Shown here: one piece after another, positions 5,495-16,430 of the stretch
Position numbering within the stretch: position 1 is the stretch's first letter
How the letters are laid out: the number at the start of each line of letters is the position of its first letter
Origin: an uncultured virus (IMG/VR IMGVR_UViG_3300013306_000447)
Lineage: Duplodnaviria; Heunggongvirae; Uroviricota; Caudoviricetes
Length of the DNA: 20,000 nt
Virus record (IMG/VR): IMGVR_UViG_3300013306_000447
Reading direction: 5' to 3' (one strand)
The notes under the pieces: generated by a model
What the model saw: the letters and a program-made list of their open reading frames with translations, nothing else
Database searches by the model: none
Told to the model about the DNA's origin: nothing
Made by a program: the position numbers and the translations under genes

Positions 5495-5523
5495 AAAAAA
5501 ACCGGCGCAAAGGCCGGTTTTTT
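5495..5523. terminator. Bidirectional intrinsic terminator (tR'-like, just after the late promoter)
   Basis: AAAAAAACCGGC-GCAAAG-GCCGGTTTTTT. Confidence 0.85.
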
Positions 5524-5563: not shown

Positions 5564-5592
5564 TTTATACCCCTCCAGTCCGGTGGCAGCAA
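5564..5592 (-). promoter_or_regulatory. Putative late promoter (pR'-like)
   Basis: Minus strand TTGCTG (5592-5587), 17-nt spacer, TATAAA (5569-5564), pointing to the terminator and holin. Confidence 0.65.
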
Positions 5593-5607
5593 GAGCTCAG
5601 CGCTGCC

Positions 5608-5658
5608 ACCCTGCAATCAACGGTAATCAACGGCAATACACAGGCAATCAACGGACAT
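5608..5658 (-). promoter_or_regulatory. P-box-like tandem repeats (candidate PrtN binding site)
   Basis: Minus strand ATGTCCGTTG ATTGCCTGTGT ATTGCCGTTG ATTACCGTTG ATTGCAGGGT; fits the pyocin P-box consensus ATTGnn(n)GTnn(n) x4. Confidence 0.7.
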
Positions 5659-6324: not shown

Positions 6325-8543
6325 AATGCGGTCTCCTGCCTGGGCACCGCCGACCCTCGCTTCCACTCCGGCGGTTTCACATACTCATAGCTGCGCACAC
6401 CACGCACACAGTTACCCTTGCGCCGGCGGGGCCAATTCATCCGATGCATAATCTTGCCGATGCGCATTTGCTCGGGTCTACCCCAGTGGCTTGGATCGAT
6501 GTTAAGCGCATGCTCAAGCAAGTGCGCGCCCGTCACCGTATCGCCAATATGCTTGTCGGCCAGATAGCCGACCACCAGGTCTTCCCACATATCTGCCTGA
6601 TAACGCTGATCCTGCTCAGCTGCGAAAACATCAGCCTCATCGCGCTCCACCCACCAGATGTCACCTGCGCGAAAACAGGCTAACGCTTCGGCCCAGAGTT
6701 GATCACGGTCGGCTCGCAGTCCCTCTAGATCAACTTTGGTACACATTACCGGCCAGTAACGGCGGTTGCCCGTATCGTCCTTCAGGTACTCATCCTGGTT
6801 GGTCGTGCCGATAAAAACGCTCTGCCGGGGAACATCCAGCATCCGCCGGCCATAGCTCTCGCGGTAGGTATCGATGGGCGATGAGACGAATTGCTTGGCC
6901 TTGGTCGACTCTGCCTTGTTCAGTGAGTCCAGCTCGGCCATCTCCACAATCCACTTGCCCCGGATCGCCTGATAGGCGTCTTTGCTGCTCAGATCAAATG
7001 ACGTATCCATGAACCACTCGCCGCCCAATACCCGCGCAGCCGTGGATTTCCCCTCGCCCTGCAAGCCTTCCAAAATCAACATTGAGTCAGCCTTGCAGCC
7101 AGGTCGACACACGCGTGCCACCGCAGAAATCAGCCATCGCTTGCCCACCTTGCGGGTGTACGAACTATCCATAACACCCAACCGATCCTGCAACCAACGC
7201 TCAAGGCGTCGCACGCCATCCCACTCAAGGCTATCTAGATACTCTCGCACCGGGTGGTAGGAGTTGTCATTCGCCACCGCACTGACAGCCTCAACAACGT
7301 GGGCAGTTTTCACCCGTAGCCCGTAAACATCAGCAAGCCACAGCGCCACCCTGATGTCGTCAAGATCGGTCCAGTCCCCCTTACCACCGCCATACGGAGG
7401 TGTACGCAGCTTGCGCGTCTTCGAACTGAACGAATCCCAGGCGATTACGCCGGCCCAGCGTTTATCGTTACCCAGAATCAATGCCACGTTGAATGGGTGT
7501 ACGATCAATCCTCCTTTTTCAGAATACTGCAGCTTCTCACGCCACCCCTCATCGGTAGAGGGTCGAACCACCGCCAACACCTGGCGGCGCACCGTGTCCA
7601 TGCCCTCAGCACAGTGCAAGTCGTTAAAATCCGTCCAGCAGTCTTCCCGGTCGTTGTCGAATACCGGCATAACCACCTGCCCACCGACCACAACCGACGC
7701 ATTGCCAGCCTTGATTACCCCCGCGTTATACGGGTGCCCATTCACTACAGTCTTCCAATCATCATCTGCGCAAAACACCAACTGCCGGCCGGGATACTTT
7801 GTGCGCATGGCTTGTGCCACCGGCAGCAAGTTGCCGGCATCAAAGCAAATGCACACCGTCAGTGAGGTCGCCATGTGCAGGCTGGCGCCTGTCGCGTATC
7901 CCTCTGCGATCAAAATCACGTCGCCCGGCTCTGGCTCGGGGCCGATCAGATGAAACGCGCCTTCTTTAGCCAAACCGTACGGCCAGTAGGTTTTGTTCCT
8001 GCCCGTAGCAGCCTGCTTTTCCGGGTACAGCACTTGTAGCCCGACAATATCGCCCTTCACATTGCGCATCGGCACGAAAGCCGTACCGCTCTTTGCCTTG
8101 TAACGCAGACCGATGCCGACTACCCGCTTGGCATCCAAGTAACGCGAACCGCCCTTTTCAGATAGGTGCTTCCACATACCAGCAGCGCGCCGGGCTGCAG
8201 TGCGGTGCTTTCGGTCCTCAGCCAGGGCGGCCTTGCGCTGGCCTTCCTCAGCCCTGGCGCGCATCACCGCTCGATCTTCAGCGCTCAGCCGCCCGCCCTT
8301 TGGCTTGATCTTCTGCCAACTGCCCTTTTCACCCTGACGCCAGTCGCCAAAAGCGCCGCAATACAGTGTTTTGCCGTCACCAGTCAGATGCTCATAGATC
8401 ACATACCAACCCGTTTTCTCCGGGGCCTTATCACCGTCGCACTCGCAACGCGTTCGCTTACCAATCACCAATGGGGTTTCTGGTTTAAGCCCGTAGTCCT
8501 GCAACTGGGCCAACACATCATCGAGTAGTTCGTGATTGGTCAT
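6321..8543 (-). CDS. Primase-helicase: Toprim domain plus VapE-family (SF3-like) helicase
   Basis: Toprim motifs IAEGYATG, CADDD, TDFND; Walker A GLQGEGKST, VEMAEL, FIGTTN, DDTGNRRYWPV. Confidence 0.92.
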   Translation of the reverse strand: MTNHELLDDVLAQLQDYGLKPETPLVIGKRTRCECDGDKAPEKTGWYVIYEHLTGDGKTLYCGAFGDWRQGEKGSWQKIKPKGGRLSAEDRAVMRARAEEGQRKAALAEDRKHRTAARRAAGMWKHLSEKGGSRYLDAKRVVGIGLRYKAKSGTAFVPMRNVKGDIVGLQVLYPEKQAATGRNKTYWPYGLAKEGAFHLIGPEPEPGDVILIAEGYATGASLHMATSLTVCICFDAGNLLPVAQAMRTKYPGRQLVFCADDDWKTVVNGHPYNAGVIKAGNASVVVGGQVVMPVFDNDREDCWTDFNDLHCAEGMDTVRRQVLAVVRPSTDEGWREKLQYSEKGGLIVHPFNVALILGNDKRWAGVIAWDSFSSKTRKLRTPPYGGGKGDWTDLDDIRVALWLADVYGLRVKTAHVVEAVSAVANDNSYHPVREYLDSLEWDGVRRLERWLQDRLGVMDSSYTRKVGKRWLISAVARVCRPGCKADSMLILEGLQGEGKSTAARVLGGEWFMDTSFDLSSKDAYQAIRGKWIVEMAELDSLNKAESTKAKQFVSSPIDTYRESYGRRMLDVPRQSVFIGTTNQDEYLKDDTGNRRYWPVMCTKVDLEGLRADRDQLWAEALACFRAGDIWWVERDEADVFAAEQDQRYQADMWEDLVVGYLADKHIGDTVTGAHLLEHALNIDPSHWGRPEQMRIGKIMHRMNWPRRRKGNCVRGVRSYEYVKPPEWKRGSAVPRQETAF

Positions 8544-8758
8544 GCCCGTACCCCACGCCGGTCTGCCAGCTCCTGGCAGTCAGTGCAACGCGTACAGCCG
8601 CGATCAAGCATTGCCAATCGCCGAGCCTCTAGGATGAAATCCCCGCAGTCCACGCACTCGAGCGTACATTGGCCTGGATTGGCACTAGGACGCGCGGCCA
8701 TCGCCACTGCAAGATTAAGAGCAATGACGTTATCAGCAACATCTGCGTTGTCAGACAT
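8540..8758 (-). CDS. TraR/DksA C4-type zinc-finger protein (PtrB/PA0612-like)
   Basis: N-terminal DxADxA motif; CVDC...RR...CTRCTDCQ. Confidence 0.88.
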   Translation of the reverse strand: MSDNADVADNVIALNLAVAMAARPSANPGQCTLECVDCGDFILEARRLAMLDRGCTRCTDCQELADRRGVRA

Positions 8759-9260
8759 AGGTCAGATCCTCCGCATGCATCTTGCGGAGCACTGCGCGCA
8801 ACTTGAACACCGCCTGCACCATCCGCTCGGCCAGCAGTTCAAACTCAGCCAGTTCGTCATCGTCCAATTTGTCATCGGACAATGAGGTCGATACATGCGT
8901 GGCTAACTCCCCCTCACGAGAAAGCAACTCGCCAATGCCTGCCATTAGCGACTGCGCCGTGTCGGTGTCGCTCAACTCGGAAACGTCGATTCCCACCCAA
9001 CCGATGGGATGCAGCAACGCGTCTACGATGCGCGGATCGCGCGTGGCACCCAGCACCAATTCAAGATCGCCAATGTTAGGCGTGTGGCTGGTGTTGGTCA
9101 GGCTCAGCTTATGATTGAGGGTGGTGGCGTTGCCGCCGTCGATAGCGGCAATGGCAGTGGCTCCGCCTGGATAATCACGTGCGGCGTGGAGCAAAGCTTG
9201 CGGTAGAGTCAACAGCGAACGCCGTGCGCGCTCAATGGAATTGAACTGTTTACGGTTCAT
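8751..9260 (-). CDS. cII: Phage regulatory CII family protein
   Basis: YPGGATAIA...TLNHKL...H pattern; downstream of cro. Confidence 0.8.
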   Translation of the reverse strand: MNRKQFNSIERARRSLLTLPQALLHAARDYPGGATAIAAIDGGNATTLNHKLSLTNTSHTPNIGDLELVLGATRDPRIVDALLHPIGWVGIDVSELSDTDTAQSLMAGIGELLSREGELATHVSTSLSDDKLDDDELAEFELLAERMVQAVFKLRAVLRKMHAEDLTYV

Positions 9261-9284
9261 GGCAAAACTCCAAAAACTCTGCCA

Positions 9285-9313
9285 GTGACCGCCGCATGCC
9301 TGTTTGGTACAGT
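9285..9313 (+). promoter_or_regulatory. Putative antisense (PRE-like) promoter
   Basis: GTGACC (9285-9290), 17-nt spacer, TACAGT (9308-9313) with extended TG; points back through cro towards cI. Confidence 0.5.
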
Positions 9314-9319
9314 TGCGCC

Positions 9320-9527
9320 GTGGTCACTCACAGGTGGTCGCATGCAGCCGGTTGCTCTGTGGTAGAAAACCCGGCTGCACCCCAATGGCAAGGCACACGC
9401 TCCGCATGTGCCCTGTCGTTACAGCCTGCAGACCGTGGTGGGTTAGCAGGCAACCCAGGGCATCCGTGCCTTGGGGGGTGGTGGAACGGCGCGTTGTATT
9501 GGTTTGCTCCGCGCCGCTCTGCCTTTT
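9320..9527 (+). ncRNA. Candidate structured antisense/small RNA with GUGGU loops
   Basis: Five consecutive hairpins; three contain G-U pairs that form only on the plus strand; five GTGGT motifs; promoter upstream and a hairpin plus TTTT at the end. Confidence 0.5.
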
Positions 9528-9533
9528 ACTTCG

Positions 9534-9722
9534 TTAAGCAGCCTGCTGGCTTGACGCTTTATCTGTCGCCCTGAGCTTTCCATCTGTAAGCACTTGAACC
9601 TGATACTGGCGTGACTGCGGCGGCTCACAGCCCCATTGCGATACTGCAGCGGGGGAGACTTTCAGAGCCGCAGCCACTTTAGATTTCCCTCCGAAGAAGG
9701 CGATTACTTCTGTCGTGAGCAT
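9534..9722 (-). CDS. cro: Cro-like repressor
   Basis: 62 aa MLTTEVIAFFGGKSKVAAALKVSPAAVSQW HTH; AGGAG RBS; divergent from cI. Confidence 0.9.
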   Translation of the reverse strand: MLTTEVIAFFGGKSKVAAALKVSPAAVSQWGCEPPQSRQYQVQVLTDGKLRATDKASSQQAA

Positions 9723-9748
9723 GGTGCTCTCCTGTTTTCCTGCCCAAT

Positions 9749-9821
9749 ACAGTAAGTACACTTAACTTATTTGGCAAGCAAATGAAGGACTCCAAACAAA
9801 GTAAGCCTTAAGCTAGCTTAA
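9749..9821. promoter_or_regulatory. OR region: PR promoter and two operators
   Basis: Minus strand TTGCCA (9777-9772), 17-nt spacer, TACTGT (9754-9749); palindromes TAAG-TACA-CTTA (9753-9764) and TAAG-CTAG-CTTA (9809-9820). Confidence 0.75.
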
Positions 9822-10477
9822 TGAATACTCCAGCAGAAAGAATCGCATACGCCATTTCCAAGTGCGGAAAGAAAGCCAGCGTCTTGGCGATAGAGTCCAA
9901 CCTGAGTGCTGCCAGAATTAGCCAGTTAGCGCAGGGAGACGGGAGCCTCAAGGCTGAAAATCTTTTCCTATTCGCACGCGCTACCGGGTTCTCAGCCCAG
10001 TGGCTTGCCGAAGGCATAGGGGACAAATATGACGCCGGTGCCCTCGAGGAGGGCCATGTGCTGATTCCCCAATTCACCGCCAAGGCGGGTGCAGGCCCGG
10101 GCCACACCAACCACCACATAGAAGACCTCGGCGGCCTAATGTTTAGGAGAGACTGGCTTACCCGAATGGGCTTGAAGGAAAAGAACCTCAAGGTCATCTA
10201 CAGCACAGGAATGAGCATGTTCCCGACCATTGCTGATGATGATGTGCTGCTGATTGACGAAGGCCAGCGCGAGCCGTTGAACGGCAGAATCTATGCAATT
10301 CAGCGCCCAGACGGAGACATCAGCATCAAGCGCCTAGTCCACACGCTCACCAACGGTTGGATAATTCGAAGCGACAACGAGGACAAACGCGCTTATCCGG
10401 ATGAGAGCGCTACTGATACAAGCATTGGTCATCTACTCATCATCGGACGGGCCGTATGGCATGCTGGAGCCCTCTAG
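9821..10477 (+). CDS. cI: CI-like repressor, HTH plus S24 autopeptidase (LexA/PrtR family)
   Basis: N-terminal HTH, AG cleavage site (AGAGPG), catalytic Ser (GMSMFPT) and Lys (IKRL), C-terminal IIGRAVW. Confidence 0.95.
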   Translation: MNTPAERIAYAISKCGKKASVLAIESNLSAARISQLAQGDGSLKAENLFLFARATGFSAQWLAEGIGDKYDAGALEEGHVLIPQFTAKAGAGPGHTNHHIEDLGGLMFRRDWLTRMGLKEKNLKVIYSTGMSMFPTIADDDVLLIDEGQREPLNGRIYAIQRPDGDISIKRLVHTLTNGWIIRSDNEDKRAYPDESATDTSIGHLLIIGRAVWHAGAL

Positions 10478-10502
10478 CTGTAGATCTCTTAACAAAATAT
10501 AT

Positions 10503-10540
10503 TAAGCTTTCTTGACTTAAAAAGTTAAGAGAACTTTAAT
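10503..10540 (+). promoter_or_regulatory. OL region: PL promoter with two operators
   Basis: TTGACT (10512-10517), 17-nt spacer, TTTAAT (10535-10540), overlapped by TAAG-N4-CTTG (10503-10514) and TAAG-N4-CTTT (10526-10537). Confidence 0.8.
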
Positions 10541-10576
10541 TGCCTCACTCTCCCACCACAGAGCGAGGCAATTCCC

Positions 10577-10747
10577 ATGCAAACCGCAACGTTGCACGTC
10601 CTACCAACGTGCCCAGAAAGCCGCGTTTTCGAGGTGCGCCGCCTAGCCATAATCCACGGCTGCGCCTTCGCCCCTACCAAACGCAAATCAACTACCAGCC
10701 CAACGCCAACCCCCTTCAATCCTGACGATGGAGGGCGTGCAGCATGA
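10577..10747 (+). CDS. Small early protein, first gene of the PL operon (56 aa)
   Basis: Below the ORF-track size cut-off: MQTATLHVLPTCPESRVFEVRRLAIIHGCAF...DDGGRAA; GAGG RBS; stop overlaps the next ATG (ATGA). Confidence 0.7.
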   Translation: MQTATLHVLPTCPESRVFEVRRLAIIHGCAFAPTKRKSTTSPTPTPFNPDDGGRAA

Positions 10748-11307
10748 GTAGACTATCTCTCAACGCCAGCGCCTACATCCGTCTACAGGCCCAGGTAAAC
10801 CTTAGCGGCACCTTCAATCACACCCTGCATTCGTGTGATGGCTGCCAATCCGTAGCGGCTCAGGTTGAGATCGAACAATGCACCGCCGGCATCACGGTGA
10901 TGGTGCGCATCTGCGGGACGCGCAATACATCAGTCACTCTCGATAAGCACCGCAAAAACAACGCCACGCGCGTTGCGAGCTTTATCGAAGGTATCGCCAA
11001 TGGCCGCAGCCCCACCGGTGTGCCCGACGTAGATGAGCATGAAGCTGTCAGCGATATAGAGGCCACTCTACGTCTGGCTATCCGGCGTGGGCGCGGCATC
11101 TACCACCTGATCGCCGACGAACTGGAGCCTTCTCTAAAGATACAGCGCAACCCACGCGGCGGTTTTATCGCCGTGATCGAAATAGACGACGACGCAGGCT
11201 GCCTACTCACCCTGCCCGCCGACAACCAGCGCGCTTACGCAATCTTGGTTGAAAACCTTAATCAATTCCTGCAGGGCTACCGCAACAGCCTCGCGGCCGC
11301 CGCGTGA
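10744..11307 (+). CDS. Hypothetical phage early protein
   Basis: 187 aa, GGAGG RBS, coupled start. Confidence 0.75.
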   Translation: MSRLSLNASAYIRLQAQVNLSGTFNHTLHSCDGCQSVAAQVEIEQCTAGITVMVRICGTRNTSVTLDKHRKNNATRVASFIEGIANGRSPTGVPDVDEHEAVSDIEATLRLAIRRGRGIYHLIADELEPSLKIQRNPRGGFIAVIEIDDDAGCLLTLPADNQRAYAILVENLNQFLQGYRNSLAAAA

Positions 11308-12554: not shown

Positions 12555-12643
12555 ATCTTTAACCGACACACTTCGATAACAGCTGCACCACCGCAACCGC
12601 TGCACCACCAGCCAAGCGGAACACAACAGTAGGAGCAAACCAC

Positions 12644-13042
12644 ATGACGGCATTTGAAATTCTCGCATTAATCAGCTTCGTAATTGCACTCGCCATTCTG
12701 TACTGGGTCGGGTACCGAGGCGGCTTAAGGGGCGGCTGGAGCGAAGGCTACGACGACGGCCACGCTAAGGGCTACATCCTGGGCATTGAGGAGGGCGAGT
12801 CATCGGGCGCTACTGCTCTCGAAAACGCCACACGGCGATGTGAACGCCTGGAACTGATTTTGATCAGGGAACCCCAGGACCGTCAGATCCTTCTGGCCAT
12901 CGCGGGAAAACTCAAACTCGCCGCCGATTTCTTCCACGCCATCAAATCGGAAAGCCACGCAACTCAAGCACTCATTTTACGTGACCACGCGTTGAACATG
13001 GCCGACGAGTTGAATTCCTTCTATCAGGAGGATGCAGCATGA
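12644..13042 (+). CDS. Hypothetical membrane-anchored protein with GxxxG repeats
   Basis: N-terminal TM helix, then GYRGG-LRGG-WSEG-YDDG-HAKG-YILG repeats; AGGAG RBS. Confidence 0.75.
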   Translation: MTAFEILALISFVIALAILYWVGYRGGLRGGWSEGYDDGHAKGYILGIEEGESSGATALENATRRCERLELILIREPQDRQILLAIAGKLKLAADFFHAIKSESHATQALILRDHALNMADELNSFYQEDAA

Positions 13043-15108: not shown

Positions 15109-15447
15109 ATGACCAACAAGCAAACGAATGACGGCATGCCGAGGCGATACCGGGTCAGCATCGGCGAATGGGGTGTTTCTCGGCGTGAATCGGTATACCT
15201 GTGCTCTGACATTGATCGGATGAACACAGGCTTGTTTAAACCGGTTACGCAAACCGATTGCCGAACTGATGTCGGCGTTACGGTTGGGCTAATTGATTCG
15301 ATTATCACGATGGCGAGAGTTTTGTCTGGCCGCCTCCTTGATTCCGTGGAAGTTCAGGAGGCTTTACAGGATTTCAGGGGGGATGAGGATGTGCGCGCCC
15401 TGCTAGATGTGCCTGCTGATGGCGATGCTACGGGAGACCATCAATGA
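15109..15447 (+). CDS. Hypothetical protein
   Basis: Start reassigned to ATG 15109 (GAGG RBS); stop overlaps the next ATG. Confidence 0.6.
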   Translation: MTNKQTNDGMPRRYRVSIGEWGVSRRESVYLCSDIDRMNTGLFKPVTQTDCRTDVGVTVGLIDSIITMARVLSGRLLDSVEVQEALQDFRGDEDVRALLDVPADGDATGDHQ

Positions 15448-16430
15448 CTACGCACAACATCATTAGCCTCAGCGGCGGCAAAGACAGCACTGCCACCCTT
15501 CTGGTCGCCATTGCCCTAGAGGCACCCAACCTGCAGGCCGTCTTCGCGGACACCGGCAACGAGCACCAACAAACCCACGAGTACCTGAATTATCTAGAAC
15601 AAGCCACACGCACAAAAATAACCCGCGTGCACGCTGATTTCACCCAACGCATTGAAGGTAAGCGACGATTCATCGAGTCGAAATGGCGAGCGCAAGGCAT
15701 AGCAGAGGAGGTAGTGCTTGCAGCGTTAGATGTACTGCAGCCAACCGGCAACCCGTTCCTAGACCTGTGCATCTGGAAAGGCCGATTCCCTAGTCGCAAG
15801 GCCCAATTCTGCACCATGGAGCTTAAACGCGATCCTATGCTTGAACAGGTAGTCATGCCTTTGATGGATACCGGCGACATGATCCTGAGCTGGCAAGGTG
15901 TACGCGCAGAAGAATCGCTTAACAGGCGATATTTGCCCGAGTGTGACGAAGTGGGCGGCGGCCTATTTAACTACCGGCCGATCTTAAAGTGGGATATTCC
16001 AGCAGTGTTCGAGGCTCACCGCTACATGGGTATCAAACCGAATCCGCTTTATTCCCAGGGCCTGGCGCGCGTCGGCTGCATGCCTTGCATCAACTGCCGC
16101 AAGGATGAATTACGCGAAATTGCCCTGCGGTTCCCCGAAGCGATTGACCGGATCGATCGCTGGGAGCGAACCGTCCAGCAGGCCAGCAAACGCGGTGCTG
16201 CCACATTCTTTGCCGGATCTAACGCGAAACATCCGAAAGGCTCTATTTCAGGCATGACCGCCATTGAAGTCATGGAGATCGCAAGTATCCGCCAAGCCGT
16301 TGAATGGTCCAAAACAGCCCGAGGCGGCATCCAATATGACCTGATGATTGCTACTGACGCCTCTGCGTGCTCCAGCGCCTACGGGCTCTGCGAGTCGGCC
16401 TGGGAGCCAGTAACCTTGGAGGTAGCATGA
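15444..16430 (+). CDS. Phosphoadenosine phosphosulfate (PAPS) reductase family protein
   Basis: PP-loop SGGKDS, ADTGNE, GVRAEESxxR, RPILKW, NPLY, RVGCMPC. Confidence 0.88.
   Translation: MTTHNIISLSGGKDSTATLLVAIALEAPNLQAVFADTGNEHQQTHEYLNYLEQATRTKITRVHADFTQRIEGKRRFIESKWRAQGIAEEVVLAALDVLQPTGNPFLDLCIWKGRFPSRKAQFCTMELKRDPMLEQVVMPLMDTGDMILSWQGVRAEESLNRRYLPECDEVGGGLFNYRPILKWDIPAVFEAHRYMGIKPNPLYSQGLARVGCMPCINCRKDELREIALRFPEAIDRIDRWERTVQQASKRGAATFFAGSNAKHPKGSISGMTAIEVMEIASIRQAVEWSKTARGGIQYDLMIATDASACSSAYGLCESAWEPVTLEVA

Follow-up and report, generated by a model that had tools for sequence, protein, structure and literature searches.

The cI/cro/cII switches that decide between lysis and lysogeny are textbook protein circuits. 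To our knowledge, the antisense RNAs of such phage switches (OOP, aQ, sar, c4) have been described only as isolated additions. The c4 RNA is cut from its target's own transcript by RNase P. In phages P1 and P7, at least two loops of c4 bind short sequences at and near the ribosome-binding region of the gene that opens the antirepressor operon, and this pairing blocks that gene's translation as well as the genes that follow (PMC12197685, in the part available to us). The same part of that source describes lambda aQ, made from paQ, as a CII-dependent antisense RNA that lowers lytic function, and lambda OOP as a transcript that is antisense to the cII mRNA. For the promoter pE of phage 186, the half-sites bound by CII are placed at -38 and -58 (PMC6593788, in the part available to us).

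The stretch of DNA analyzed here, called the window, is 20,000 nt long and comes from a Pseudomonas prophage, in which a gap of 273 nt (9261-9533) separates cro from a cII of the phage 186 type. Beyond cII, the minus strand carries a DksA/TraR zinc-finger gene and a Toprim/VapE primase and, past terminators, the holin, terminase and portal genes. The plus strand carries cI followed by an operon that is made up of a 56-aa gene, an Ant-like gene, a PrtN/excisionase-like gene, a 132-aa gene (gene 12644) and the integrase gene. Upstream of gene 12644, the region 12234-12554 matches both the PrtN pyocin-activator family in Pfam and an excisionase family in PHROG, and a gene with a PAPS-reductase domain (15444-16430) adjoins the integrase gene. 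Palindromes of the form CTTAA...TTAAG, which are likely CI operators, are present between the -35 and -10 elements of the early-left promoter (10516-10529) and between cro and cI (9723-9820). All of the variable cro-like proteins end in Ala-Ala, as does the small first early-left protein (9534-9539 and 10742-10747 in the window, and in relatives), and the conserved cassette starts with those two Ala codons and the stop codon. We take these protein ends to resemble an ssrA-like tail for ClpXP. The primase operon has a strong bidirectional terminator (5496-5523) behind it, and farther on three copies of a 10-nt unit like CAATCAACGG at 5614-5655 form a candidate origin or iteron array.

We hold with moderate confidence that the gap between cro and cII encodes a CII-driven small RNA of about 205 nt on the plus strand, whose loop seeds would pair with early-left mRNAs and block their translation. 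The features on which this reading is built are collected in Table 1.

Table 1. Coordinates of the genes, signals and predicted RNA structures discussed in the text
Feature	Positions	Strand	Basis or match
cII, phage 186 CII family	8751-9260	minus	PF06892, E 1.4e-19; phrog_101 CII-like activator
Inverted repeat TGGCA-N15-TGCCA, presumed CII site	9260-9284	.	exact sequence match; 63/63 relatives
pE-like promoter: -35 GTGACC 9285-9290, 17-nt spacer, TG 9305-9306, -10 TACAGT 9308-9313	9285-9313	plus	
Predicted small RNA, about 205 nt, antisense to the cro-cII leader	9320-9527	plus	conserved promoter and terminal hairpin/U run as bounds
5' hairpin, 9 pairs including four G-U	9320-9341	plus	fold; begins at predicted transcription start
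Structured core P1-P4 of the cro-cII leader; GGA loops in P1/P3, ACCAC loops in P2/P4	9328-9477	minus	covariance models R1 and R2
Hairpin P4', apical part 9352-9366 complementary to early-left mRNA 5' end	9343-9379	plus	
Hairpin P3', loop GCUCCGC; minus-strand complement is a GGA loop	9384-9420	plus	fold
Hairpin P2', loop GUGGUG 9435-9440, complementary to loop CCCACCAC of the early-left leader	9424-9451	plus	fold
Hairpin P1'; minus-strand complement is a C-ACGGAU-G hexaloop hairpin	9454-9475	plus	
Terminal hairpin 9479-9523 and UUUU 9524-9527; loop region 9500-9510 complementary to the gene 12644 ribosome-binding region	9479-9527	plus	
cro-like gene	9534-9722	minus	Pfam PF14549 P22_Cro, E 1.4e-22
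cI, S24 repressor	9821-10477	plus	
Early-left (PL-like) promoter TTGACT-17-TTTAAT	10512-10540	plus	read by eye; absent from consensus-scan list
Early-left 5' leader: conserved CCACCACAGAGCGAGG stretch (proposed target a) and Shine-Dalgarno	10547-10576	plus	
First early-left gene, 56 aa, conserved, function unassigned	10577-10747	plus	phrog_35204
Ribosome-binding region and start codon of gene 12644 (proposed target b)	12632-12646	plus	
132-aa gene 12644	12644-13042	plus	

Relatives of the locus were found with a CII protein search and a covariance model in 151 Pseudomonas genomes, 27 of which contain a match to the model. They provide 63 distinct cassettes that fall into three types, all located between a variable cro-like gene and cII, and the element is single-copy in the nearest genome. 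A sample of 150 other genera of the class gave no match to the covariance model. Cultured phages gave no DNA match, their best CII protein match being 46% identical, and a loose DNA pattern scan of viral contigs returned mostly chance hits, with five model matches in 4 of 80 loci. Against Rfam 15, which includes C4 (RF01695), the region 8000-11000 of the window gave no relevant match at E values up to 10; the sole match inside the gap was to the CRISPR-DR29 repeat model (E 2.3, 18 bits against a threshold of 39). Three relatives that represent the three cassette types gave no Rfam match at E values up to 1. The sequence-only reading had named an existing Rfam family as what would remove the novelty of the element, and no family matched. 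A literature search, which covered main texts and not supplements, returned no description of a small RNA between cro and cII. We regard the putative RNA gene as a conserved and so far undescribed kind, with a logic as in c4.

Several other identities of the gap were considered and rejected. A dispersed host repeat of the REP kind is contradicted by the nearest genome, which holds one full-length copy, all other matches being at most 25 nt long with E above 0.04. A coding region is contradicted by open reading frames that differ in frame and length among relatives, and by the alignment, where there are indels of 1 and 2 nt and P4 shows a deletion of 15-16 nt. A replication origin with GTGGT iterons was set aside, the spacing of the repeats being irregular (14, 25, 76 and 43 nt) and the stems covarying; the array at 5614-5655 is a better iteron-like candidate.

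The promoter GTGACC-17-TACAGT with an extended TG, which had been proposed from the sequence alone, is present at its claimed place (as TGg), and transcription is predicted to start near 9320. It scores 8 of 12, which is under the threshold of the consensus scan, and hence it was not called. Every one of the 63 distinct cassettes carries TGGCA-N14/15-TGCCA beside a weak -35 element, followed by a spacer of 17-18 nt, TGn and TAnnnT. The sequence of the spacer varies among these relatives, while the hexamers, the spacing and the TGn are kept. In the window, the two half-sites (9260-9264 and 9280-9284) have their centers near -58 and -38 relative to the predicted start, and the repeat overlaps the cII start codon (9258-9260) together with its ribosome-binding site. 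Because this conserved geometry equals that of phage 186 pE, the plus-strand promoter is of the pE/PRE type and presumably activated by CII; the extended -10 element, found in 63/63 relatives, suggests some basal activity as well. Within 2 kb of cII there is a single CII-type repeat in 72 of 73 loci. Another copy of TGGCA-N15-TGCCA in the window, at 5584-5608, was rejected as a CII site: it has no promoter at the right distance, and 1.3 matches with at most one mismatch are expected by chance. When read as minus-strand RNA, the repeat at 9260-9284 can form a 5-bp hairpin that has the cII Shine-Dalgarno in its loop and abuts the start codon.

Downstream of this promoter, the plus strand from 9320 to 9530 folds into six elements with an energy of -110.1 kcal/mol (z -4.6), which none of 200 shuffles equaled. 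The sequence-only reading had described a row of hairpins that display GTGGT, and its description is accurate. Refolding gives the four middle hairpins at the positions claimed and, at the end, a terminal hairpin with UUUU (9524-9527) behind it. The loop GUGGUG appears on 9424-9451 in the plus-strand fold, and the five GTGGT copies lie exactly at 9320, 9334, 9359, 9435 and 9478. The complement ACCAC, which is present five times in 273 nt, reaches this count in 5 of 2000 dinucleotide shuffles (mean 0.87), and the P2' loop is kept across relatives. The G-U pairs that work only on the plus strand were likewise found: four are in the 5' hairpin, which for this reason would form on the plus strand only, and the inner stem of P2' contributes more, as does the terminal hairpin. 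Over the whole gap, the fold of the minus strand is at least equal in quality (z -5.55 vs -3.92 for the plus strand), so the strand cannot be told from folding by itself. Contigs from public RNA runs, four of 23 of which were compared with the locus, show neither strand nor RNA ends. One 123-nt contig of a soil metatranscriptome, which spans 9334-9456, has a depth of 633 vs 22.6 and 3.9 in the adjoining contigs; its ends are polymorphic sites and contig depth cannot rank parts of the locus, so nothing is drawn from it.

In most relatives, the predicted RNA would end at a plus-strand terminator. In 48 of the 63 relatives there is a canonical GC hairpin followed by T5-6, located 136-278 nt past the -10 element and right after the cro stop codon. 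Among the rest, two were flagged by the terminator scan at a distant site only, and 13, including the window, were unflagged. The window itself has a long hairpin of about 14 pairs followed by UUUU, and this was left uncalled by the consensus scan because it has four U only. In the cro-proximal part (34 distinct sequences), the plus strand gives a consensus fold of -42.5 kcal/mol vs -17.5 for the minus strand, and G-U pairs that are possible on the plus strand only occupy 180 cells vs 6. In this part the G-U pairs support the plus strand, whereas the sequence-only reading has to be corrected for the four middle hairpins, which covary better on the minus strand. A plus-strand regulatory RNA of about 200 nt, as first proposed, is nevertheless supported by comparison among the relatives, in which it would form a unit bounded by the conserved promoter and, in most cases, by the terminator. 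With the terminator standing ahead of cro, the RNA leaves unexplained how CII would raise cI.

Two regions of the early-left operon are complementary to loops of the predicted RNA. The segment 9354-9363 in P4' is an exact 10-nt complement of 10555-10564 in the leader of the operon, and the predicted duplex between the P4' apex and this leader has an energy of -21.6 kcal/mol, which 1 of 1000 random windows matched. The P2' loop GUGGUG would form a duplex of -16.6 kcal/mol with the loop of the same leader, as good a value being found in 4.4% of random windows. In the terminal loop, 9500-9510 is an 11-nt complement of 12632-12642, which comprises the Shine-Dalgarno and spacer of gene 12644; here the predicted energy is -22.6 kcal/mol, and 0.3% of 400 random windows were as good. 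Gene 12644 is the sole gene start in the window that has ACCAC beside its Shine-Dalgarno. An unbiased scan for complements of at least 10 nt in 9 kb of early-left DNA from 10 genomes returned the leader of the small first gene in 9 of the 10, the start region of a gene of 132-262 aa in 8 and the first codons of the small gene in 6. The promoter of the operon has a -10-like hexamer at the matching place in relatives. An additional role of the P1' and P3' loops as anti-Shine-Dalgarno seeds was rejected: they gave one 9-nt match, between P3' and the ribosome-binding region of the TraR-like gene (8769-8777), that by itself lacks significance, and their relation to the cII Shine-Dalgarno is inconsistent. 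The early-left leader is also surrounded by an inverted repeat (10538-10573) that can hide the Shine-Dalgarno of the 56-aa gene and whose arms change in a compensatory manner among relatives. The 5' arm of this repeat is probably upstream of the early-left mRNA start, so that only transcripts reading through from cI would be silenced by it.

The complementary segments change together among relatives. Of the loop-target pairs, 20 have CAAACC on both sides and 7 have CACACC on both sides, with no discordant pair, and the switch between the two is present in two different loop backgrounds. In one lineage, UUACCAC replaces UCCACCAC in the P2 loop and in the leader alike, and where AGAGCGA is exchanged for AGAGCCG, P4 and the early-left leader change together. 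In each of the 24 distinct pairs, the longest complementary run (10-15 nt) is longer than any found in about 200 random windows, a count that is biased in that the leaders were chosen by motif pattern. This covariation in trans amounts to few independent events, about three lineage switches, and is what an interaction between two RNAs would predict. The proposal that GUGGU-type loops act as repeated seeds is strengthened accordingly by their match to early-left ribosome-binding regions and by the joint change of loop and target. The analogy that had been drawn to C4 can be kept for the logic of the loop seeds, with the P4' and P2' loops matching the early-left leader and the terminal loop matching the start region of gene 12644; membership in the family was not borne out, there being no match to the Rfam C4 model.

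The strand that encodes the cro-cII mRNA has a conserved structure of its own. Within P1-P4, compensatory change is seen in 33 of 45 pairs with 96% of cells paired and 0 of 500 shuffles equal, on an alignment that was fitted to the model; on a MAFFT alignment the number of compensatory pairs is 17. The consensus energy is -49.5 kcal/mol on the minus strand vs -23.2 on the plus strand. When 53 distinct sequences are read on the minus strand, G-U pairs occupy 273 cells vs 38 for A-C, an imbalance that is strongest in P3. The P1 loop is C-ACGGAU-G in the window and in 36 of the 53 sequences and contains GGA in all 53, and the P3 loop contains GGA in 51 and ACGGAU in 15. The consensus of high-affinity RsmE sites is an ANGGAX hexaloop that sits straight on a stem, and in the hcnA and RsmZ SL1 sites this loop reads ACGGAU (PMC4005645, in the part available to us); at the level of sequence, P1 has this arrangement. 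Since the middle hairpins covary better on the mRNA strand and carry loops of the RsmE/CsrA type, this strand probably has a function of its own. A candidate pseudoknot between the P2 loop and GGUG in the joining strand was rejected, as it is not kept in two relatives. Seven relatives contain tandem modules, about 250 nt upstream of cII, with the CII box and promoter between the modules and an 11-nt stretch, GACCACCTGAC, repeated in both. Only the promoter-distal module would be transcribed as antisense there, so the small RNA could act on the second module through short patches.

The minus-strand covariation, the Rsm-type loops and the same-sense hairpins in the two early leaders are the reasons for keeping two readings that could either replace the small RNA or add to it. 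It is possible, if on the whole rather unlikely, that the cro-cII mRNA leader is a functional cis-regulatory structure in which P1 and P3 bind RsmA/RsmE of the CsrA family. The cII Shine-Dalgarno would be bound as well, because it lies in the loop of the TGGCA/TGCCA RNA hairpin, and cII translation, or Rho-dependent termination before cII, would be tied to the Gac/Rsm state of the host. The preference of the P1-P4 covariation for the minus strand and the near-universal GGA in P1 and P3 agree with this, as does the ACGGAU loop on its C-G closing pair, which matches the RsmE consensus (PMC4005645, in the part available to us); CsrA binding can moreover expose a Rho entry site (PMC4052769, in the part available to us). 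However, P1 precedes the cII start by about 210 nt and P3 by about 140 nt, which is far for a CsrA-type repressor, and as binding sites the two hairpins are predictions made by sequence and fold. GGA is missing from the cII Shine-Dalgarno in two relatives, the second module is without GGA loops in some, and the ACCAC loops, the plus-strand promoter and terminator and the early-left complementarity would go unexplained. An Rsm-controlled leader is in any case compatible with a plus-strand RNA. In lambda, nutL and nutR are found at the start of the early-left mRNA and in the cro-cII interval. Similarly, the CCACCAC hairpins of this prophage might be nut/boxB-like sites for antitermination, recognized by a phage or host RNA-binding protein or, as with HK022 put, by RNA polymerase itself, which would let early right transcription pass the terminators and reach the same-strand genes for lysis and head. 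A same-sense YCU-CCACCAC-AGA hairpin is indeed present in both early leaders (P2/P4 on the minus strand, and early-left), the covariation is on the minus-strand side, and the early, lysis and morphogenesis genes are all on the minus strand with strong terminators at 5523-5496 and 5130-5108 between them; the phage 186 record also lists anti-terminated terminators in the early operon. We nonetheless consider antitermination quite unlikely as the explanation of these hairpins. No boxA or arginine-rich N-like gene was noticed on reading the region, and Pfam and PHROG scans of the open reading frames name none. The early-left mRNA probably starts inside the 5' arm of its hairpin, which would leave a stem of 4 bp, and neither the plus-strand promoter and terminator nor the terminal loop, which matches and covaries with the unstructured start region of gene 12644, is explained by such sites.

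The plus strand also admits a simpler account, in which the transcript is a mere leader of a CII-dependent establishment transcript for cI, as at 186 pE or lambda PRE, the complementarities are incidental, and the hairpins and terminator form an attenuator or insulator. The architecture of the promoter equals that of 186 pE, where the transcript reads into cI and int. Given the weak terminator in the window, transcription could plausibly continue into antisense cro and cI, and since most loci have one CII-type repeat near cII, this promoter would be the only evident target of CII. We judge this account improbable, as it is at odds with the strong terminator before cro in most relatives and would not lead one to expect covariation between loop and target; it also leaves over a cassette of some 205-280 nt that phage 186, with 30 bp between apl and cII, does not have. 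Finally, both strands may act together as a two-strand RNA switch, which we think unlikely. The plus-strand RNA would silence the early-left operon, and the minus-strand leader, which has copies of the target motifs as well as high-affinity RsmE/CsrA hairpins, would titrate the small RNA and read the Gac/Rsm state of the host. If this were true, the balance between the early-right leader and the pE-like small RNA would set the threshold for lysogeny, and host physiology would feed into it.

For the CII-driven small RNA, which is the reading we favor, the following course of events can be proposed. CII made from the early right transcript would switch on the pE-like promoter, and transcription would run from near 9320 to the hairpin and U run at 9479-9527. 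The P2' and P4' seeds, GUGGUG and CUGUGGU, would pair with the beginning of the early-left mRNA, immediately before the Shine-Dalgarno of its first gene, and the loop of the terminal hairpin would pair with the Shine-Dalgarno and spacer of gene 12644. This pairing would block translation of both genes, and polarity would probably lower expression of the remaining early-left operon, including the Ant-like gene, the PrtN/excisionase-like gene and int. The RNA is also fully antisense to the cro-cII leader and could feed back on the right operon. Taken together, the early-left operon would be shut off in favor of lysogeny. We infer the production of the RNA, its activation by CII, the translational repression and the bias to lysogeny from comparison of sequences. 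Because hairpin loops match ribosome-binding regions of the early operon, an RNA layer is probably added to the lysis-lysogeny choice in these prophages. If this is confirmed, CII would work through an RNA effector besides, or instead of, cI transcription, and the picture of how lysogeny is established would change for this large group of Pseudomonas prophages (27/151 genomes). The natural variants of loop and target would serve as ready-made compensatory mutants, and the RsmE-type hairpins on the minus strand may offer a link to quorum and stress signaling in the host.

Set beside the described systems, the predicted RNA is like c4 of P1/P7 (Rfam C4, RF01695) in being a small phage RNA with loops that match the ribosome-binding region of a first gene, in an operon that holds an antirepressor gene there and an Ant-like gene here. 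Unlike c4, it has a separate conserved promoter of its own with a CII-type site instead of being part of its target's transcript, it does not match the Rfam model, and its gene lies in the cro-cII gap, a long way from the targets and on the other strand; over its whole length the RNA is in addition antisense to another mRNA. At about 205-280 nt with five or six hairpins, it also exceeds c4, which has 77 nt. Dependence on CII, which is predicted here, is shared with aQ, and the cII mRNA as antisense partner is shared with OOP. These two, however, are simple cis-antisense RNAs with no known seeds acting in trans and no sequence relation to the RNA described here, which covers the cII leader instead of the coding region. 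P1 on the minus strand resembles the RsmE/CsrA hairpins of hcnA and RsmZ in having an ACGGAU hexaloop directly on the stem, and so does P3 in one lineage (PMC4005645, in the part available to us). These hairpins differ in that there are two or three candidate sites, far upstream of the start codon and on the strand opposite to the proposed small RNA. With lambda nut and HK022 put, the locus shares a same-sense hairpin motif, CCACCAC, past both early promoters.

Phage 186 offers the nearest parallel for the promoter. Its CII site at pE, ATGTTTG-N13-CAAACAT, has half-sites 20 bp apart from center to center, the same spacing as here, and a TAAAGT -10 element stands at a nearly equal distance, so that a TAnAGT -10 is common to both. 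The annotated CII site of 186 also begins at the cII start codon, pE is convergent with the early right promoter, and the adjoining CII belongs to the same Pfam family (PF06892). The half-sites themselves differ (ATGTTTG there, TGGCA here), and the TGn of the extended -10 is absent in 186. The transcript of 186 passes straight into apl, cI and int, whereas here it would first traverse the structured cassette of about 200-280 nt, and in most relatives a terminator precedes cro. The cassette would thus join the CII circuit and antisense RNA, with a 186-type CII box driving a small RNA with multiple seeds.
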